IMG/VR virus record: IMGVR_UViG_2869947659_000002
Length of the DNA stretch: 53,943 nt
From: a virus
Lineage: Duplodnaviria; Heunggongvirae; Uroviricota; Caudoviricetes
Reading direction: 5' to 3' (one strand)
Position 1 is the first letter of the stretch; each line of letters begins with the position of its first letter. The position numbers and the translations under genes were made by a program. The notes beneath the pieces are model-generated. The model was not told the DNA's origin. It saw only the letters and a list, made by a program, of their open reading frames with translations, and ran no database searches. This document shows, in pieces, positions 3,675 through 45,543 of the stretch.

Positions 3675-4493
3675 TTAAGCAGCTATCTGATGATATTTTT
3701 CCCTGAAGGCTGCCGGGGAGATATTCCCCAGACGAGAGTGACGACGCTGACGATTGTAGAAAATCTCAATGTATTCCCGTATTACTGAGATGGCTTCATC
3801 CCGGTTATTAAAACGATAGTGGCTCAGGCTCTCATTTTTCAGCGTTCCCCAGAAGCTTTCCATCGGAGCGTTGTCGTAACAGTGACCTTTACGCGACATT
3901 GATGTTTTCAGACCAGACTGCTCCTGTATGACCCGGTAATCGTATGCGCAGTACTGTGAACCTCGATCAGAGTGGTGGATTAGCCCGGCAGGTGGGCGCT
4001 GGCTCCTGAGCGCCATAAACAGGGCTTTACCTGTCAGCTCTTTTGTCATGCGCTCTCCCATGGCGTAGCCGACAATTTCGCACGTATAAACATCTTTGAT
4101 GCCAGCGAGGTACAACCATCCCTCCTGTGTGGCAACATACGTCAGGTCCGCCACCCAGACCTGATTTGGTGCTGTAGGAGCGAACGTCTGGTTCAGCAGA
4201 TTTGGCGCAACTGGCAGATTGTGGTTCGGGTTCGTAGTCGCTCTGAACTTGCGTTTCTGCTTACAGCGTAGCCTTAGCTCCTTACGAAGACGTGCCAGTC
4301 GGTCACGACCAACGATGATGCCATTCTCTGCCAGCTCCGTCTGGAGCCGCCGGGTTCCATATGTTTCGCGAGTGCGGATATGTGCCACCTTAATCTCCAG
4401 TTTTAGCCGCTCATCACTTTGTTTTCTGTCTGAGGGTTCATGCTGTACCCAGTTGTAATAACCGCTCCTGGATACACCAAATACCTGACACAT
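3675..4493 (-). CDS. IS3-family transposase OrfB (DDE integrase domain)
   Basis: 272-aa ORF; same protein (one residue different at the C-terminus) as the copy at 48769..49587. Confidence 0.9.
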   Translation of the reverse strand: MCQVFGVSRSGYYNWVQHEPSDRKQSDERLKLEIKVAHIRTRETYGTRRLQTELAENGIIVGRDRLARLRKELRLRCKQKRKFRATTNPNHNLPVAPNLLNQTFAPTAPNQVWVADLTYVATQEGWLYLAGIKDVYTCEIVGYAMGERMTKELTGKALFMALRSQRPPAGLIHHSDRGSQYCAYDYRVIQEQSGLKTSMSRKGHCYDNAPMESFWGTLKNESLSHYRFNNRDEAISVIREYIEIFYNRQRRHSRLGNISPAAFREKYHQIAA

Positions 4494-4528
4494 CGCTTCA
4501 ATGGGAAATTGTTGTCGCCATTGTTCGA

Positions 4529-4831
4529 TTAACGCGTATTTTTCAGCGACTCCTGTGCAAAATACGCTGTTGCTTTTTTTAATATATCTCGCTCAAGGCG
4601 AGCTTCATTTAACGCCTTACGCAGTTGCAGAATTTCAGATTCCAGTTCAGCCACCGTGCGGGAACCAGGAGTACCGAGCCCTTTTCTGGCGGCGGTAACC
4701 CATTGTCCTAAAGTGCCTTCAGGAAGGGATAATCGGGAAGCGCCTTCACTGATCGAAAGTTGATTTTCAAGAACCGTTCTGACAGCTTCGGCTTTGAACT
4801 CTTTAGAGTAACGTTGGTTTTTTCTGCTCAT
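4529..4831 (-). CDS. IS3-family OrfA (HTH/leucine zipper)
   Basis: 100-aa ORF MSRKNQRYSKEFKAEAVRTVLENQLSISEGA...; identical to the copy at 48431..48733. Confidence 0.9.
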   Translation of the reverse strand: MSRKNQRYSKEFKAEAVRTVLENQLSISEGASRLSLPEGTLGQWVTAARKGLGTPGSRTVAELESEILQLRKALNEARLERDILKKATAYFAQESLKNTR

Positions 4832-29878: not shown

Positions 29879-30094
29879 TTACTCTCCCCGTGCAGCCTTA
29901 CGACGGTCCTCTCTGATTTTGAAATACAGGTTAGTCAGATATGTCAGCAGCCCAAACAGCAGACTCCCCAGCACGCCTATTGCCGCCCACTGAGACGGGG
30001 AAACCCTGTCCAGCAACTGCAGGAACCAGTAGCCCGTTCCCACCGCTGACGTGGTGTATGACACACCTGTTGTGATTTTTTCCATCTGGTACAT
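29879..30094 (-). CDS. S: holin (phage 21 S-type pinholin family), dual-start motif
   Basis: [71 protein letters not shown]; two TM segments; Met1 and Met4 dual start; six-frame ORF extends to 30172. Confidence 0.85.
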
Positions 30095-30244
30095 ACCCCG
30101 TCTCCCGTTATCCGGAAGCTGACAACAATAAAAAAAGCCACCAGTTAAGTACTGATGGCTCTGATAACTCATGCAGGCATCTCAGACGACCCACTGACAC
30201 TACCGGTGAGTTTAACGATACCTTCCATTTGACTGGCTCACTTT

Positions 30245-32101
30245 TTATGATGATGCTGGTGCATTTATCTCCAGCACCAGACTTTCTATCTCAACGCCAT
30301 ACGCTGCATTTTTGGTAATATCCGTCAGCGTCAGCGCATTCAGCCCCAGTGTCAGACTGTCTTTTATGACCTGGAATGCCGGGCCAGCCACTCCATTCAG
30401 TTTCGGAGTAACCGTGGCACTGCCGGCGGTGAACACCAGCTCCAGCGTCTGCCAGTCGTTACTGTAATTCCCGAACTCGCCCAACTTTGTGTTTCCTGCT
30501 TTCCTGTGATGCATCAGATTCAGTTTGCCGTCTGTGGTCTGGGTGAAGAACGACATCAGGAACGGGTTACCAGTCCCGGTCATCGCCACGACGTCAGGTA
30601 ACGCTACATCGGTATACAGATAAATTCCCAGACCGAACTGGTTGTTGGTCAGTGCGCCTGACAGTCGAAACTTACAGCTCAGTCTGCCACCCCGTGTCAG
30701 CAGGGAGACTGCGTCATCCACCGGATGCATCAGGGACCAGGTTTTATTGCTCTGCTTGGTAACCTTAAACACACCATCTTCCAGCGCAACACTGCCGCCG
30801 GTGATGGTCCAGCCCTGCGCAGCAGCCTCTCCGGCTGTCGGCAGCAGGGAGACTGTACGAACGGATGTGTCACCATCAGACGGCCCCGATGGAGTGTCGC
30901 CGCCGGGCGAGGGTTTGATTTCCGGTGCCTTACCACTAATGAAGGCTAAGGTGCGACCGGCTACGTTCAGAATAGCAGTTGCCATACGATCGGGAATAAT
31001 GCCACGACGCGCCCATGAGCTGAAATGCGTCGGGCGATTTGATGATACCCAGTTTTTGTTCGTTCGGGATGCCGAACCGTAATAACCAGACCCGGCAATA
31101 TCAGGATCTTCTGACGGGTTGTTTGTCGGTGTATTAACTCCGCTACCATCGGTCATAAAGGGAACAAAATAAATCTGCTGGGATTCTTTACCTTTATATG
31201 CACCATATACCACTTCATATTGCGTACCGTGTTCTTGTTTCCACGCGTATGTCGTGTCGCCACAAATCCAGGGGACTGATGCCGGACTTCCACCGTGACA
31301 CTGCGCCGCCAGCCCGGCAAGGTCAGCACGGAACTGCTGTACCATTGCAAGAAATGCTGCTGGCTGCTGGGCGTAACTGGCATTCGTCATATCGAATTCC
31401 CCCTGCATCCAGCATATCGCCAGCAAAACGTTTTTCGGGTTTTTCTGCAATGCTGCCTTCGTGCGGAAAAGCAGATCCTGATATAACGGCTTACCCACTC
31501 CCCAGCGAGCCGAATCCTGACTGGCCCCCGTGGACTCGCTGAATGTCCCCTCCGTGCCCTGGGTGAATGCCGAACCACCACGACAGCATGGTACCAGCAG
31601 GATCCCCGCGTTATTAGGGATATACGGAAGCAGTTTTTTGGCAATATGTAAGCCCTGTCCGACACAGCCGTACTGCCCTTTGCTCAGGTCAGCCCGGGGA
31701 TGGTTAATCGTACTCATATCCTGAACATCATGCAGACAATGGTCAGCAGGAATGATGTCGTTAAATACGCATACTTCACCACCGGGAGTCACTGTGTTAC
31801 GACGGGCCAGTTGCTTAATGCGCGGATGGGGCGCATCGTATGAATCCGGCAGCGGAAGCCCTTCACCGTAAGCCATGGCATTGGACTGCCCGGCCAGTAC
31901 GATGACGTAGTACCAATCCGGCTCAGTTGCACCACTGACCACCACATCACCTTCTGCTGCAATCGCCTGCATCAGGGTATAAGGGGTTATGGCCACCGGA
32001 CTACCAAACGGCTGCCAGCCCTCCTTCAGTTTTTGTGTCAGTCGTTTCGCAAGGTCTGACGGCGATACCGCCCTGACCACGTCATAGTGTTTAAATGCCA
32101 T
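30245..32101 (-). CDS. prophage 9-O-acetyl-sialate esterase (NanS-p-like, SGNH/SASA domain)
   Basis: 618 aa; N-terminal small domain, then YVIVLAGQSNAMAYGE (GQSN esterase motif); strong RBS GGGAGGA; same slot as nanS-p downstream of stx in Stx phages. Confidence 0.85.
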   Translation of the reverse strand: MAFKHYDVVRAVSPSDLAKRLTQKLKEGWQPFGSPVAITPYTLMQAIAAEGDVVVSGATEPDWYYVIVLAGQSNAMAYGEGLPLPDSYDAPHPRIKQLARRNTVTPGGEVCVFNDIIPADHCLHDVQDMSTINHPRADLSKGQYGCVGQGLHIAKKLLPYIPNNAGILLVPCCRGGSAFTQGTEGTFSESTGASQDSARWGVGKPLYQDLLFRTKAALQKNPKNVLLAICWMQGEFDMTNASYAQQPAAFLAMVQQFRADLAGLAAQCHGGSPASVPWICGDTTYAWKQEHGTQYEVVYGAYKGKESQQIYFVPFMTDGSGVNTPTNNPSEDPDIAGSGYYGSASRTNKNWVSSNRPTHFSSWARRGIIPDRMATAILNVAGRTLAFISGKAPEIKPSPGGDTPSGPSDGDTSVRTVSLLPTAGEAAAQGWTITGGSVALEDGVFKVTKQSNKTWSLMHPVDDAVSLLTRGGRLSCKFRLSGALTNNQFGLGIYLYTDVALPDVVAMTGTGNPFLMSFFTQTTDGKLNLMHHRKAGNTKLGEFGNYSNDWQTLELVFTAGSATVTPKLNGVAGPAFQVIKDSLTLGLNALTLTDITKNAAYGVEIESLVLEINAPASS

Positions 32102-32325
32102 GAATCCTCCCGGCCGGGATAATATTGTGAGTAAAATAAGGAGCGGGCTGAAGTCCGGAAGTTACAGGACAATGGCAGAAGAGAGACGACAGCCCGCAAT
32201 TCGAAAAAGACCGCGCAGTTGCGCAGAGTGATTACTATGGGGTATTATTCGCCAGCTGAAATATTACTTCACGTTTTATTGTTTATTCCTTGCCGCCCGC
32301 GTCTCCCAGCGCGGGCTTTTTTTGC

Positions 32326-32575
32326 CCACAAGAAAACCCCTCCGGAGAGGGGCTAAAGCCGCGTATCTGTATCATCATGCACATGGTGCCGGGTGCCTCC
32401 CGGTGAGTTCAGCCCGGTGCCACTAAACCCGCGTCATTCTCGTTTTGATAATCAGAGATTATACCGTCACCAGTCGCCCCTCCGCTCAGGGGGATTCACC
32501 ATGCGAAATTTTTTTAACAAATGCCCAGTCTGACAGGCAACTGTCAACTTACTGAATTGTGAGCAACATAGCATT
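32326..32575. repeat. structured ~245-bp repeat unit A (imperfect direct repeat of unit B)
   Basis: Shares conserved blocks with 32815..33060: CCCCTCCGGAGAGGGGCT hairpin, CATGGTGCCGGGTGCCTCCCGGTGA, GCCCCTCCGC.CAGGGGGATTCACCATGC, CTGAATTGTGAG. Confidence 0.6.
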
Positions 32576-32814
32576 TAACGGGGAACCTGTTTTCTGCAGT
32601 AAAAAGGCCCACCGGAGCGGATGGGCCTGGAAGGATAGCGGTCATGTGATGCCGGTTTCCCGGTAACTCAGCACCGGTATCTGAGTCAACGTTTTCTCTA
32701 CTGGGTCATTTCCGATACGCCCTGCCTGCTGACAGGCTTTCATCACATCTGAAAATATAGCACCCTGACTGATACTGTAGTACCTAAGGTTCCAGAAACT
32801 GTGATGTATCCGGC

Positions 32815-33060
32815 ACAGAAAAGCCCCTCCGGAGAGGGGCTGGAGAGTGGCGCTATGTGCCATTGCATGGTGCCGGGTGCCTCCCGGTGAATTCAGTACC
32901 AGCACCTGAATCCGCGATTATCCCATATACCTACTCGCTGATTGCCCCTCCGCACAGGGGGATTCACCATGCCAGTTTCTTTTAACAAACTCCCCGCAAA
33001 CCAGACAACAGTCAACCGCCTGAATTGTGAGACATTTAAAAAAAAGCCCGCAAAAGCGAG
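32815..33060. repeat. structured ~245-bp repeat unit B
   Basis: See unit A; the GC hairpin is followed by a T-tract on the minus strand (terminator-like); lies directly downstream of the tRNA cluster. Confidence 0.6.
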
Positions 33061-33076
33061 CCAGGGAAAATAAGTG

Positions 33077-33153
33077 TGGCGCGTTGTACTGGATTCGAAC
33101 CAGTGACCGATTGCTTAGAAGGCAATTGCTCTGTCCGGCTGAGCTAACAACGC
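33077..33153 (-). tRNA. argN: tRNA-Arg (anticodon UCU)
   Basis: 77-nt cloverleaf read by eye: GCGUUGU acceptor, D-arm AGCUCAGCCGGACAGAGC, anticodon loop CUUCUAA, T-loop GGUUCGAAUCC, CCA end. Confidence 0.85.
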
Positions 33154-33166
33154 AGGATACAGATAA

Positions 33167-33243
33167 TGGACCGCCTTCGGGGACCCGAACTCCGCGCAAC
33201 CAGCTTCGAAGGCTGGCGCTCTTTCCTGATGAGCTAATGGCGG
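33167..33243 (-). tRNA. tRNA-like gene, probably tRNA-Arg (anticodon UCG), possibly degenerate
   Basis: Anticodon stem-loop CCAGC-CUUCGAA-GCUGG and CCA end, but an A-A mismatch in the acceptor stem and an imperfect T-stem. Confidence 0.5.
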
Positions 33244-33250
33244 TATGTGA

Positions 33251-33326
33251 TGGTGGCCCTTGCTGGATTTGAACCAGCGACCTGGCGATTATGAGTCGCT
33301 CGCTCTCACCACTGAGCTAAAGGGCC
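33251..33326 (-). tRNA. ileZ: tRNA-Ile2/Met-type (anticodon CAU), ileX-like
   Basis: GGCCCUUUAGCUCAGUGGUGAGAGC...CUCAUAA...GGUUCAAAUCC...GGGCCACCA; closely resembles E. coli tRNA-Ile2. Confidence 0.8.
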
Positions 33327-33366
33327 GGGAGCCGCATAATAACGACGCGTAATTAATTCTTCAATA

Positions 33367-34425
33367 TCATCCGTTCTGGCTGACTAAATCCTGTACTTCC
33401 CGAACCGTCTGCTCAAAACGTTCAGTCTCCAGCTCAACGCCAATTGCACGACGCCCGAGCGCCAGTGCCGCTTTCACTGTCGAACCCGACCCCATGAAAA
33501 AATCTGCAATCAGGTCACCCGGACGACTGCTAGCGCTGATTATCTGCTGCAGCATTTCTGCCGGTTTTTCGCACGGATGTTTCCCGGGATAGAACTGCAC
33601 CGGTTTATGCGTCCACACATCGGTATACGGCACCTGCACCGTCACGCCAAAATACCGCCGCAGATGTTTATATTCACTCAGCAGCTCCGCATACTGCCGG
33701 TTCAGTGAGGTATACGTATCCACCAGCTGGTGGTGGAGCTTTTCCAGTTCACCACGCCGATGCTTCTCTTCTGCCACCCGGGCAAACAGCGCCTGTAATT
33801 TCAGATAATCGCTTTCATTCGGCAACTGCCACTGACTGGCACTGAACCAGTGCGACACCATGTTTTTCTTTCCTGTGGCATCTGCAATCTGTTTTGCCGT
33901 TATCCCCAGGGCAGCTCGCGCATCACGAAAGTAAGAAATCAGCGGGGCCATCACATGCTGTTTCAGTGCACTGCCCTTCACCGCATACCCGGCATCTTTC
34001 GGACGATACGGCCCCTGATAATGTTCCGCGAACAGAATGCGCTCTGTGGCGGGGAAATACGCCCGCAGGCTTTCCTTGTTGCATCCGTTCCAGCGTCCGG
34101 ACGGCTTCGCCCAGATAATATGGTTCAGCACACTGAAGCGTTCACGCATCATGATTTCGATATCAGATGCCAGGCGATGACCACAGAACAGGTAAAGACT
34201 TCCGGCAGGTTTCAGCACCCGCCAGAACTGCGCCAGACACTGGTCCAGCCACTTCAGGTAATCATCGTCGCCCTTCCACTGGTTATCCCAGCCCTCAGGC
34301 TTCACTTTAAAGTACGGCGGGTCCGTGACTATCAGGTCAACAGAATTTTCGGGTAACGACCGGATAAATTCCAGGCAGTCGGCGTTGATTAACTCACAAC
34401 TGGATATTTTTACAGTATTAAGCAT
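33367..34425 (-). CDS. DNA methyltransferase (N6-adenine/N4-cytosine type, beta class), no adjacent restriction enzyme
   Basis: 352 aa; motif IV DPPY (IVTDPPYF) near the N-terminus and motif I FFMGSGST near the C-terminus. Confidence 0.85.
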   Translation of the reverse strand: MLNTVKISSCELINADCLEFIRSLPENSVDLIVTDPPYFKVKPEGWDNQWKGDDDYLKWLDQCLAQFWRVLKPAGSLYLFCGHRLASDIEIMMRERFSVLNHIIWAKPSGRWNGCNKESLRAYFPATERILFAEHYQGPYRPKDAGYAVKGSALKQHVMAPLISYFRDARAALGITAKQIADATGKKNMVSHWFSASQWQLPNESDYLKLQALFARVAEEKHRRGELEKLHHQLVDTYTSLNRQYAELLSEYKHLRRYFGVTVQVPYTDVWTHKPVQFYPGKHPCEKPAEMLQQIISASSRPGDLIADFFMGSGSTVKAALALGRRAIGVELETERFEQTVREVQDLVSQNG

Positions 34426-34575
34426 GGATCATTAAGCCTGTCTCTGATAGGCTCATTCTGCTTTTGCGCAAAGCAGTGGGCCTGAGGTTTGCTTGTGATC
34501 CGGACGCATGAGCAGATGGCTGGTGGGTGCCCCTAACACCCACCAGCCGCCCATTTACCACAAATAAAAAAGCCT

Positions 34576-34773
34576 TCACTGCGGAAGGCGTCTGTAACAA
34601 CCGAACTGATAGTCTGCCAGACCCGCCATAACCAGCTGAGTCAGTATTAACTGGCAGCGTTCGCGTGAAAGGTAAGTATTCTGCGCTATCTCCCCGACTG
34701 TCGCCGGGTCGGTAACGCTTAATTCATTAAACACCACTCTGGCGGTTTCTGTCATATCCTGCTGTTTTAGCAT
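34576..34773 (-). CDS. hypothetical small protein (65 aa)
   Basis: ORF between the tR'-like terminator and the DNA methyltransferase gene; no family recognised. Confidence 0.4.
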   Translation of the reverse strand: MLKQQDMTETARVVFNELSVTDPATVGEIAQNTYLSRERCQLILTQLVMAGLADYQFGCYRRLPQ

Positions 34774-34893
34774 GTCTTTTCCTTTTCCGGTTAACGTGAC
34801 ACACCAATAACTCTTGTCGAAAAAGCCAGCAAGCTGAAAGACAGGTATTCACCGCCACCAGCGCGTTTACTGTACTGACGCGATTTCAGTCAT

Positions 34894-34992
34894 AAAAAAC
34901 CCGCCAGGCGGCGGGGTGTAAAAAATCTTCTAACGTCAGGCATAAAACGCCCATCGTTAGAGCAAATTTACCACAGATTCGGGAAAAATCAA
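34894..34992 (-). promoter_or_regulatory. late promoter pR'-like with short leader RNA and tR'-like terminator (Q antitermination module)
   Basis: Minus strand: TTGATT (34992..34987), 16-nt spacer, TAAATT (34970..34965), then hairpin CCCGCC-GCCT-GGCGGG (34915..34900) followed by T6 (34899..34894); directly downstream of the Q-like gene. Confidence 0.6.
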
Positions 34993-34997
34993 CAACA

Positions 34998-35819
34998 CTA
35001 TCGCGTTACCCTCTTTAACTGCCGCTCCGCCCATGCCTCTTCAATGTCAAACCGAACCACCAACGTATCGTAAAAGCGTTTCACTGATTTTTTCCACGTA
35101 TCAAGCGTGATAGCACTCGTCACTTTGCATATGGCATTAAATGCCTCCGTTGATGGCAGCCTTTCACAGCCACGACCACCACAACGCTGGCAATCTCTGA
35201 TAACAGGCATACCACGTTTTACCGACTCTTCACGATGAATGGCGACACCACGCCCACGGCAATCCTTACAGGCGGTGGAAACCTCACCCTTTCCGCCACA
35301 CTCCGGACAGGCAACTTTTACCACCTCCCTGACTTTTTTCCATTCTTCCCAGTAAGACGGATACACGCCTTTTGTGCACTTTGCCCACACTGGTGGCTTA
35401 CCATCCGGATACTGGATCTTGTTTGTAAAAACCTCGCTTTCAATAAATTTTTTTCCGTGACAGCAGGGGCACTGTTTTTTGCTCGCCGCGCTACGGGCAT
35501 AATCTTCAAACGCATACGAAGCCATAATGCGCATCACTACCGGTTTTATTTCTGCCGGAAGTTTTCTCAACGCCGCCACACGATCGCACCGACTGAGTGC
35601 ATAATCTGCCAGTAATTCTGTTGCCCGCGCCCTGTCATTCATACTGATGCCCATTTTCCCCAGGAACGCAGAAAACCCCATCTCAGCCCGATTCTGTGTC
35701 ATGCCCTGCGCGGCCATCACATCAGTGATACTCAGCGCATCTTTTGACGTTGAGGCCGATGCATCGGTCAGGCCAGGGGATTTTGGGGAGTAGTATTTCG
35801 GTAAATCTTCCAGTTTCAT
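34998..35819 (-). CDS. late antiterminator Q-like protein (Cys-rich zinc-binding)
   Basis: 273 aa with several CxxC pairs (CPCCHGKK, CPECGGKG, CKDCRGRG, CQRCGGRG); lies between rusA and the pR'-like promoter. Confidence 0.7.
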   Translation of the reverse strand: MKLEDLPKYYSPKSPGLTDASASTSKDALSITDVMAAQGMTQNRAEMGFSAFLGKMGISMNDRARATELLADYALSRCDRVAALRKLPAEIKPVVMRIMASYAFEDYARSAASKKQCPCCHGKKFIESEVFTNKIQYPDGKPPVWAKCTKGVYPSYWEEWKKVREVVKVACPECGGKGEVSTACKDCRGRGVAIHREESVKRGMPVIRDCQRCGGRGCERLPSTEAFNAICKVTSAITLDTWKKSVKRFYDTLVVRFDIEEAWAERQLKRVTR

Positions 35820-36190
35820 TTTTTGACCTGCTCTTCATGCATTATGGGGTAAATCTTCACCCCCATACGTCCACCAGATACTGGCTGACCACGAACGATA
35901 TTGATTTCATCAAACTGCTCATCGTCCATTAACACTCCCGCATGCGTCAGCGCATCCAGCGGTGCTTTCAGGATATTGTCCAGGTCGCGACGACGCTTAT
36001 CCGGTGGCTCTGCAATCACCTTTATCGCCAGCCTTCCGGACAGGCTTAATTTCAGCCGCTGCTGGCGAACAATAAGCGCCACAGCCCGGCGATAACGCTT
36101 TCCCTCCTCCGAGATAAAATATGTGCTGCCACGGCGTCGCCAGTAAGTGTTCACCGTCGGCGGGTAAGGTAAAACCAAATCTATGAGCAT
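35816..36190 (-). CDS. rusA: Holliday junction resolvase RusA
   Basis: 124 aa with RusA signature ...PPDKRRRDLDNILKAPLDALTHAGVLMDDEQ... Confidence 0.9.
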   Translation of the reverse strand: MLIDLVLPYPPTVNTYWRRRGSTYFISEEGKRYRRAVALIVRQQRLKLSLSGRLAIKVIAEPPDKRRRDLDNILKAPLDALTHAGVLMDDEQFDEINIVRGQPVSGGRMGVKIYPIMHEEQVKK

Positions 36191-38063: not shown

Positions 38064-38219
38064 TTACTCCTCAGGTTCGTAAGCTGTGAAGACAGCGACC
38101 TCCGTCTGGCCGGTTCGGATTCGTACCTCGCAGAGGTCTTTCCTCGTTACCAGTGCCGTCACTATGACGGTTAAACAGATGACGATCAGGGCGATTAGCA
38201 TCGCCTTTTGCTGCTTCAT
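38064..38219 (-). CDS. hokD: Hok/Gef-family type I toxin (HokD/RelF-like), with overlapping mok-like frame to 38276
   Basis: MKQQKAMLIALIVICLTVIVTALVTRKDLCEVRIRTGQTEVAVFTAYEPEE; six-frame ORF 38064..38276 gives the mok-like upstream extension. Confidence 0.9.
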   Translation of the reverse strand: MKQQKAMLIALIVICLTVIVTALVTRKDLCEVRIRTGQTEVAVFTAYEPEE

Positions 38220-38961
38220 AGCCTGCTTCTCCTTGCCTTTCGGCACGTAAGAGGCTAACCTACGTGTGTAGAGCATAGATATGGCCTCAGATTAATGTTA
38301 AGCGTCTTGCCGGACGCGTAATGTTAACTGGGGCTTTTCTCTATCTGCCTTTGGTGTTGATGCCCGAGGCAGATAGCCTCAAGCACCCGCAGCAATTCTA
38401 CTTAACTACCGTTACCTCGCCAATATGAAATCAATCAGAAAGGTGATCCATAAGAACAACAGCAAGACAATAAATTGCCATTACAGCAGCAATAGCCAGC
38501 GCACATTTGAGAACCAGCACCACAACCTCCTGTATTGGACGTACACCAGTCCTGATAAATATGAGGCTGTCTCGTCAGTGATTCAATACAACTACTGGGT
38601 ATAGTTTCTATGATTTTGTTCTGTGGAAATGGAAAACAGCAACCAGTCACCACCAGCACTTCTTTAAACATGCCAAGTCACACGCAAGCCAACATTATAG
38701 TTCCCTTTGAGCGAGCAGATGAAGCTAGCAAAAATATTGATCACTTAGGATGCATTACTAACGTTGCTATGTGTTAACGAACAGGGAGTGGGTCATCAGC
38801 ATAAATATTTATGCAGTAGGTTTCTTTTAGGACTAGATTAATCAAAAACATTTAGATAAAATTATAAAATCAAGAAATTGGTGGCAATTAATCTTTAATT
38901 GTGCCAGCTGAATTTCGTTATTATAGAAGATTAGCTTTTTTTTGAATGTTTGGAGAGTAAA

Positions 38962-45485: not shown

Positions 45486-45543
45486 TTTCTGGTGACGTTT
45501 GGCGGTATCAGTTTTACTCCGTGACTGCTCTGCCGCCCTTTTT
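45486..45543 (+). ncRNA. dicF: DicF small regulatory RNA (53-nt mature form plus U-tail)
   Basis: Exact match to the DicF sequence as I recall it: TTTCTGGTGACGTTTGGCGGTATCAGTTTTACTCCGTGACTGCTCTGCCGCCC followed by TTTTT. Confidence 0.85.

Follow-up and report, generated by a model that had tools for sequence, protein, structure and literature searches.

A probable array of four small RNA genes, three of STnc100 type and one convergent, in the late operon of a lambdoid prophage

What fills the roughly 1 kb of DNA between the tRNA cluster and the nanS-p-like esterase gene of a lambdoid prophage, and what are the hairpins and T-tracts crowded into it? The question arises from a viral sequence of 53,943 nucleotides (IMG/VR record IMGVR_UViG_2869947659_000002, Caudoviricetes), referred to in its entirety as the window. 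Its late operon lies on the - strand and runs from the antiterminator gene Q through a 65-aa ORF, a methylase gene, three tRNA genes and the gap to the esterase gene and the holin/lysis genes (Table 1). The original prediction, made from raw sequence, took the gap to be non-coding, and protein searches agree: none of the four ORFs in or overlapping the slot (32102-33076) matches a Pfam family, and RefSeq (which names the esterase a 'SASA family carbohydrate esterase') places only a single pseudo 'hypothetical' fragment there. The gap very probably consists of four separate sRNA genes in the 'moron' slot of the late operon: three tandem genes of the STnc100 superfamily, and one gene convergent with them.

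Table 1. Features of the late region, in the direction of late transcription
Feature	Position	Strand	Details
Antiterminator Q	34998-35819	-	Pfam Antiterm PF03589
PR'-like promoter	34950-34992	-	TTGATT-16-TAAATT with AACGAT pause-like element, directly after Q stop
tR'-like terminator	34915-34900	-	hairpin + T6; terminator scan; -12.6 kcal/mol
65-aa ORF	34576-34773	-	tR'-like terminator on one side, methylase on the other; weak sub-threshold TrmB-type helix-turn-helix match (17 bits, E 0.004)
DNA methylase	33367-34425	-	
Phage tRNA cluster ileZ-argN-argO	33077-33326	-	upstream border of slot; ARAGORN + Rfam
tRNA-Met/Ile2(cat)	33251-33326	-	
tRNA-Arg(tcg)	33167-33243	-	
tRNA-Arg(tct) (argO)	33077-33153	-	
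Non-coding gap	32102-33076		between tRNA cluster and esterase gene
Terminator directly after argO	33038-33062	-	hairpin 33062-33045, then T8; -11.4 kcal/mol
STnc100 unit c2 (= EcOnc05)	32811-33031	-	Rfam match 32811-33001
Conserved 5' box of c2	33031-33020	-	CTCACAATTCAG
Terminator hairpin of c2	32841-32822	-	
Middle STnc100-like unit	32599-32800	-	sub-threshold Rfam match 32599-32772
Extended -10-like box of middle unit	32762-32754	-	TGCTATATT
Terminator hairpin of middle unit	32628-32605	-	
STnc100 unit c1	32324-32573	-	Rfam match 32324-32533
5' box of c1	32563-32552	-	CTCACAATTCAG; TGCTATGTT just before, at 32573-32565
Sixth, weak terminator-like site	32539-32522	-	inside c1
Terminator hairpin of c1	32354-32335	-	
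Terminator of + strand gene	32295-32323	+	-16.9 kcal/mol
Seed-like CCTTGCC	32288-32294	+	just before terminator 32295-32323
Convergent sRNA gene	32142-32323 (5' end approximate)	+	homologue of EcOnc08/21/42 and EPEC sRNA
Fifth late-strand hairpin + T-tract	32203-32226	-	hairpin 32226-32211; -9.3 kcal/mol
Box in esterase leader	32124-32139	-	TTATTTTACTCACAAT; third copy of the CTCACAAT box that opens c1 and c2
ATTGTGAG copies	32124-32131, 32556-32563, 33024-33031		esterase leader, c1 5' edge, c2 5' edge
nanS-p-like esterase	30245-32101	-	downstream border of slot; DUF1737 + SASA + DUF6645 (Pfam)

In the RefSeq/PGAP records NZ_CP042878 and NC_007946 (UTI89), none of the four RNA genes is annotated in the stretch equivalent to 32102-33076, although two of these four lie far above the Rfam gathering score. 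'Hypothetical proteins' are drawn across the RNA genes in several GenBank phage records. Further Rfam families scoring above their gathering thresholds in the same prophage are DicF (45487-45538, + strand, 76.7 bits), the sok antitoxin RNA of a hok/sok-type locus (38214-38388, - strand, 114 bits) and IS009 (1378-1576, - strand, 218.8 bits).

The late strand of the slot is built of three tandem units of ~200-240 bp each. Global alignment of the outer two, c1 (32324-32563) and c2 (32811-33031), gives 77% identity over aligned positions and a score of 245, as against 67 ± 8 in shuffles. The two imperfect direct repeats of ~245 bp that had been described on inspection are therefore real, but they are two members of a set of three and do not adjoin: a repeat search finds their common blocks at 32327-32563 and 32814-33031, with start-to-start spacings of 468-487 bp, which places them apart. 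Between them lies a diverged unit (32599-32800) that is ~68% identical to either, with alignment scores of 103-108 (shuffles, 58-64 ± 8-9). TRF finds no tandem array over the slot because the copies are too divergent, and the tandem nature of the slot becomes visible only with a covariance model.

A covariance-model search and alignment to published prophage sRNAs, two of the kinds of check that the original prediction had named, both yield clear matches. With the Rfam STnc100 model (RF02076; gathering score 47 bits), c1 (32324-32533) scores 161 bits (E 3e-37) and c2 (32811-33001) 136.3 bits (E 7e-31), each over model positions 1-206, that is, the full length; c1 and c2 are clear members of the family. 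Over 182 nt, c2 is 100% identical to the STnc100 copy of Sakai Sp4, which overlaps EcOnc05, and the 5' half of c1 is near-identical to the Sakai Sp5 copy, EcOnc27/sRNA103. The two units have the same fold as STnc100/EcOnc05/EcOnc27 and are placed alike, with phage tRNAs or stx2B on one side and the nanS-p esterase on the other; Sp4 and Sp5 carry one STnc100 copy each, whereas the window has three tandem units.

EcOnc05 and EcOnc27, STnc100 RNAs of lambdoid prophages, are Hfq-associated in EHEC, and EcOnc05 (Sp4) has an Hfq-CRAC peak and a Northern signal at ~222 nt (Tree et al. 2014, PMC4104026). EcOnc27, which is sRNA103 and is encoded in Sp5 directly downstream of stx2B, is Hfq-crosslinked and detected at ~235/247 nt on Northern blots. 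In EDL933, 11 STnc100 copies are transcribed, one of them confirmed by Northern blot, and a 2025 study reported STnc100 in STEC vesicles and mapped one copy 75 nt downstream of stx2. Overexpression of sRNA103 reportedly raises fimZ and espA transcripts; the evidence on STnc100 function consists of these overexpression effects and in-silico pairing only. The complete identity of c2 to EcOnc05 of Sakai Sp4, together with the EDL933 data, suggests that its transcript is Hfq-associated as well. The reading of the repeats as paralogous phage sRNA genes, which was part of the original prediction, is thus supported by the STnc100 scores and by the identity of c2 to an RNA that has been crosslinked to Hfq and seen on Northern blots in EHEC.

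RNAalifold, applied to an alignment of 11 paralogues (the three units, natural variants of related loci, the Sakai Sp5 and EPEC PP6 copies, and PasD1/PasD2), gives back the Rfam STnc100 fold, with 88% of cells paired. In this set of paralogues related by descent, 12 of 31 pairs carry a compensatory double change, compared with 6.1 ± 1.8 in shuffles (0/500 reach 12) and with at most 9 pairs in slid controls, all of which fall below the observed 12. Closing helix, three inner hairpins and terminator are all present, and with covariation. Conservation is lowest in the columns that connect the closing helix to the terminator; this is also where the seed of the EPEC sRNA PasD was placed on the basis of its RIL-seq targets, and variable columns 162-200 (alignment A4) coincide with that seed. 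The pattern suggests that the STnc100 superfamily combines a constant scaffold with a variable seed. Each late-strand RNA can be thought of as a conserved scaffold (a long closing helix around three hairpins), then a linker that varies and, last, a GC hairpin plus U-tail, which would end the RNA and is probably its Hfq-binding 3' end. Since the linker is the most variable part and the site of the PasD seed, the three units probably have different sets of targets.

The middle unit (32599-32772) is the diverged one. It scores 30.1 bits against RF02076 (E of 1e-3 in a 6-kb search and of 4e-5 when 256 nt are searched alone), so that by gathering score it does not belong to STnc100, and it matches the model end to end. 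The closing helix, the three inner hairpins and the terminator are kept, and because all helices are retained the unit probably works like a family member, yet Rfam's cut-off leaves it outside the family. In this it resembles PasD1 and PasD2 of EPEC E2348/69, which are likewise sub-threshold STnc100 matches (38 and 41 bits, against 30), have the scaffold in common with it and lie immediately before the esterase gene. PasD and STnc100 have been proposed to share an origin (Zhu et al. 2026, preprint). The middle unit is not a PasD orthologue, however; BLAST does not align the sequences, and the PasD seed UGUGAG (TGTGAG) is absent from the - strand of 32102-33076.

Two natural variants of the middle unit exist. 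They differ chiefly in the flanks, in hairpin 1 and in the terminator stem; both stems still pair, hairpin 1 being kept through structure-preserving changes. Of 5426 complete E. coli genomes, 673 carry the unit (347 at ≥99% identity and 327 at 90-95%), as do five GenBank phage records, and at the two loci examined it is flanked by two full STnc100 copies. No annotated feature lies under it among the matches listed that cover the unit. A scan for its 27-nt core in one genome per species matches E. albertii only, and there is accordingly no evidence of wider spread.

A score of only 30 bits, one variant whose closing helix is mismatched at its end, and the evident shuffling of modules among prophages would all fit an array that is only partly functional, in which the middle unit, and possibly one flanking copy, is a decaying duplicate left by prophage recombination. 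We regard this as a possibility of some weight, but on the whole unlikely: a core of ~95 nt differs by a single substitution between the variants while the flanks diverge around it, hairpin 1 and the terminator have changed with their pairing intact, and the unit is maintained in those 673 genomes and in E. albertii. Two things are new here, a modest addition: the expansion to a triplet, and the middle unit, unannotated and below the Rfam threshold. The rest of the array was already known.

The fourth gene, on the + strand, ends at 32323 and abuts the end of c1 at 32324, so that the two are convergent and back-to-back. Its terminator had been predicted at 32297..32325 and was found 2 nt away. 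The segment 32095-32335 (+) is 97% identical over 241 aligned columns to the PP6 locus of EPEC E2348/69 (counterpart at NC_011601 1444797-1444978, - strand), and this locus yields the Hfq RIL-seq sRNA 'E2348C_1409.E2348C_1408.IGR' (PMC8550237 table S6), which the authors of that work equate with EcOnc08/21/42 (PMC8550237). Identity to the Sakai Sp4 copy is 94.5% over 182 nt. EcOnc08/21/42 (Sakai Sp4, Stx1 phage) is Hfq-crosslinked and appears at ~271 nt on Northern blots of Sakai RNA (Tree et al. 2014, PMC4104026); the Northern probe of that study maps to 32219-32250. By its homologues, the + strand RNA would thus measure 182 nt (EPEC coverage) or ~271 nt (Sakai Northern). The motif enriched in targets of the EPEC sRNA, which include cfa, dppA, tir and emrA, is GGCAAGG, and it is complementary to the CCUUGCC that precedes the terminator (32288-32294). 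With these RNAs the gene shares its terminator and CCUUGCC element, an antisense relation to the esterase leader and convergence with STnc100; it differs from them in a handful of substitutions, and has no Rfam family. Its fold is only marginally better than that of shuffles (z = -1.9), so that structure is not counted as an argument for it. A match to OmrA-B (32235-32323, + strand, 25 bits at a gathering score of 40, E 0.15) was rejected as similarity at the level of the terminator; the same region is instead 97% identical to the known EPEC sRNA locus.

The arrangement also recalls the anti-sRNAs AsxR and AgvB: a + strand gene that converges on, and abuts, an STnc100-type unit upstream of the esterase gene. 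The esterase-proximal DNA is shared with Sp5, including a TTGCGC hairpin that forms the AsxR -35 region. Membership in the AsxR/AgvB group was nevertheless rejected. The + strand RNA lacks the conserved 42-nt 3' region and nothing indicates a sponge function; alignment to Sp5 AsxR shares the T-tract alone; and the AsxR (RF02703) and AgvB (RF02702) models have no match at E <= 1 in 30000-36000, whereas Sp5 AsxR itself scores 88 bits. In EPEC PP5 (1385-1720) and another relative (1946-2281), the anti-adaptor gene iraM, encoded on the opposite strand, separates the STnc100 unit from the esterase gene, taking the place of the convergent sRNA gene of the window.

How, then, are the terminators to be read? 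A scan of the slot returns 10 terminator-like matches, compared with 2.1 ± 1.3 in shuffles, and these amount to five separate late-strand sites, a sixth weak one, and one site on the + strand, with hairpin energies of -9.3 to -17.3 kcal/mol. At least four had been foreseen on the late strand. As the unit hairpins would end the RNAs, the 'terminator cluster' is primarily a series of 3' ends of individual sRNA genes, to which the tRNA cluster adds a terminator of its own. The fifth hairpin lies 100-125 nt upstream of the esterase start, within the antisense of the + strand sRNA gene.

Judging by the homologous RNAs of EHEC and EPEC, a lysogen of this strain would make all four RNAs, and these would be Hfq-associated, base-pairing regulators that act in trans on host and virulence mRNAs. 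After induction, if the lambda paradigm holds, polymerase modified by Q at PR' would read through all of the terminators to the esterase and lysis genes. The promoter that follows Q is presumably the equivalent of lambda PR'; together with the tR'-like terminator it would give a constitutive RNA of ~60 nt, analogous in origin to StxS. A further terminator-like site (34589-34572, -) follows the 65-aa ORF.

The start sites of the late-strand units are less sharply marked. There are exactly three copies of ATTGTGAG (on the late strand, CTCACAAT) in the 53.9 kb of the window, and the slot contains all of them; because the copies sit at the 5' edges of c2 and c1 and in the esterase leader, CTCACAAT marks module boundaries. 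CUCACA is at the same time the reported target motif of the EPEC sRNA PasD, which the slot does not encode. Ahead of the boxes stand weak -10-like elements, TGCTATGTT in c1 and TAAATG in c2; the corresponding element of the middle unit is TGCTATATT. Extended -10-like boxes noted by eye as unit promoters were not counted as evidence, because such boxes are too frequent by chance: TGnTAnnnT, found before the middle unit and c1, is expected ~0.6 times per kb per strand. That promoter DNA makes up the A-rich 5' part of the Rfam STnc100 model, as first supposed, is disfavoured because published Northern sizes put the 5' ends close to the CTCACAAT boxes. A sigma-70 scan of the - strand within the slot gave no convincing promoter, and the unit RNAs could stem from read-through or processing of the tRNA transcript rather than from promoters of their own. 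Immediately upstream of ileZ-argN-argO, the promoter scan finds a sigma-70-like site, TTGAAG-17-TATTAT (33364-33336, -; 9/12 matches), so that the tRNAs, and perhaps the first sRNA unit by read-through, could be Q-independent. At the other end of the slot, a -10-like box of the esterase leader (TATTTT, late strand) overlaps + strand -10-like boxes within 32118-32139, GATAAT at 32118-32123 and TAAAAT at 32132-32137. Transcription of the convergent sRNA could begin from the + strand boxes, and the overlap suggests back-to-back promoters at the esterase start.

The same slot accommodates toxin genes in other phages. In Sakai Sp5, stx2AB occupies precisely the interval from the shared argO terminator to the (C/G)TCACAATTCAG box at the opening of the first STnc100 unit. 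That unit starts downstream of stx2B with GTCACAATTCAG; in the window the same box, CTCACAATTCAG, directly follows the argO terminator (33062-33038), with no stx upstream of the array, and the window therefore looks like an empty stx insertion point. To this extent the original description of a slot equivalent to that of stx is justified. Its further statement, that the repeats and terminators are there instead of toxin genes, is not, for Stx2 phages carry the dyad too: in Sp5, STnc100 (4423-4628, +) and AsxR (4630-4682, -) are convergent and abutting. A dyad of STnc100 and a convergent sRNA downstream of stx2B means that the RNAs accompany the toxin genes and do not replace them. Three viral contigs in a survey of 80 carry the Sp5-type STnc100/AsxR pair and have no stx match.

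A dyad of STnc100 and a convergent sRNA, located between the late promoter and the lysis genes, has been described before (Tree et al. 2014, PMC4104026), and prophage sRNAs at this position of pathogenic E. coli are also treated in a review (PMC7873438); the mention of such RNAs in the original prediction was correct. The literature places dyads in at least eight Sakai prophages. Here, too, two convergent sRNA genes lie between the PR'/moron region and an esterase-type ORF, as they do in Sp5 and Sp4, and Q, tRNAs, esterase and holin follow one another in the order expected for a dyad slot. In Sp4 the slot from argO to the esterase holds one STnc100 copy and then the convergent RNA. STnc100/EcOnc dyads of lambdoid late regions are thus already known, real but ordinary (PMC4104026, PMC7873438).

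Some match to the 1.4-kb region is found in 3338 of 5426 complete E. coli genomes. At least 80% of the region is covered in 340 of the 5426, and the full array is present in ~340; the best matches, 99.0-99.1% identical, include UTI89, S88, IHE3034 and ATCC 11775. The repeat blocks are conserved in related prophages. Among 80 viral contigs with a close homologue of the esterase, c2 alone is found in ~37, the window's order of c2, middle unit, c1 and convergent RNA in 17, c2-middle-c2 in 11 and c2 followed by the convergent RNA in 8, so that the slot is assembled from the same modules in different combinations.

Could the array also act in cis? One reading joins two proposals: that the dyad is a cis-acting control module over and above a pair of trans-acting sRNAs, and that the middle unit is a functional third subfamily. 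The + strand RNA, as antisense to the esterase leader and to late read-through, would act along with the stacked terminators to prevent expression of the esterase and lysis genes in the lysogen, and so fix how much Q is required for lysis. The middle unit, overlooked by Rfam and unannotated in ~12% of complete E. coli genomes, would have a promoter and a seed of its own. If true, such a module would offer a reason for the conservation of the dyad; the present results do not point to it in particular, and we think the combination quite improbable. Slightly less probable still is that the structured units are mainly cis-acting, forming a multi-terminator gate or insulator that silences the esterase and lysis genes in the lysogen, with the + RNA as antisense and any role in trans secondary. 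Seven intrinsic-terminator-like sites do lie between PR' and the esterase start; Sp4 and Sp5 of Sakai have the hairpin and T-tract of 32226-32203 ahead of their esterase genes as well; the + strand RNA shows full complementarity to the esterase leader and may extend as far as its start codon; and the position of the dyad between late promoter and lysis genes is kept in many prophages for a reason that the literature calls 'unclear'. However, in lambda tR' alone suffices, the homologous RNAs are abundant, discrete, Hfq-bound species that form chimeras with many unlinked mRNAs, and 37 of the 80 related loci have one unit and no convergent partner, so that a fixed gate architecture is not required. 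That the region codes for small proteins (an 87-aa ORF at 32642-32905, -, and a 42-aa ORF at 32857-32985, +) is scarcely credible, for all that ORFs of 40-93 aa are present, 'hypothetical protein' features stand in GenBank phage records and RefSeq, and some EDL933 STnc100 copies carry ribosome footprints, since Pfam has no match, the ORFs run across unit boundaries and terminators, conservation tracks RNA pairing with compensatory changes, and RefSeq labels its own fragment a pseudogene.

Four sRNA genes, three in tandem and one convergent, remain the preferred reading. A reading of the raw sequence alone had thus picked out a genuine group of regulatory RNAs encoded by prophages, the Hfq-binding sRNA dyads found beside stx in Shiga-toxin phages and in the same slot of stx-negative prophages. 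To these the present analysis makes a modest addition, the occurrence of three STnc100-type units in a prophage common among extraintestinal E. coli, with the full array in ~340 complete genomes. Strains such as UTI89 and ATCC 11775 would be convenient stx-free backgrounds in which to study the function of STnc100 and of the convergent arrangement.
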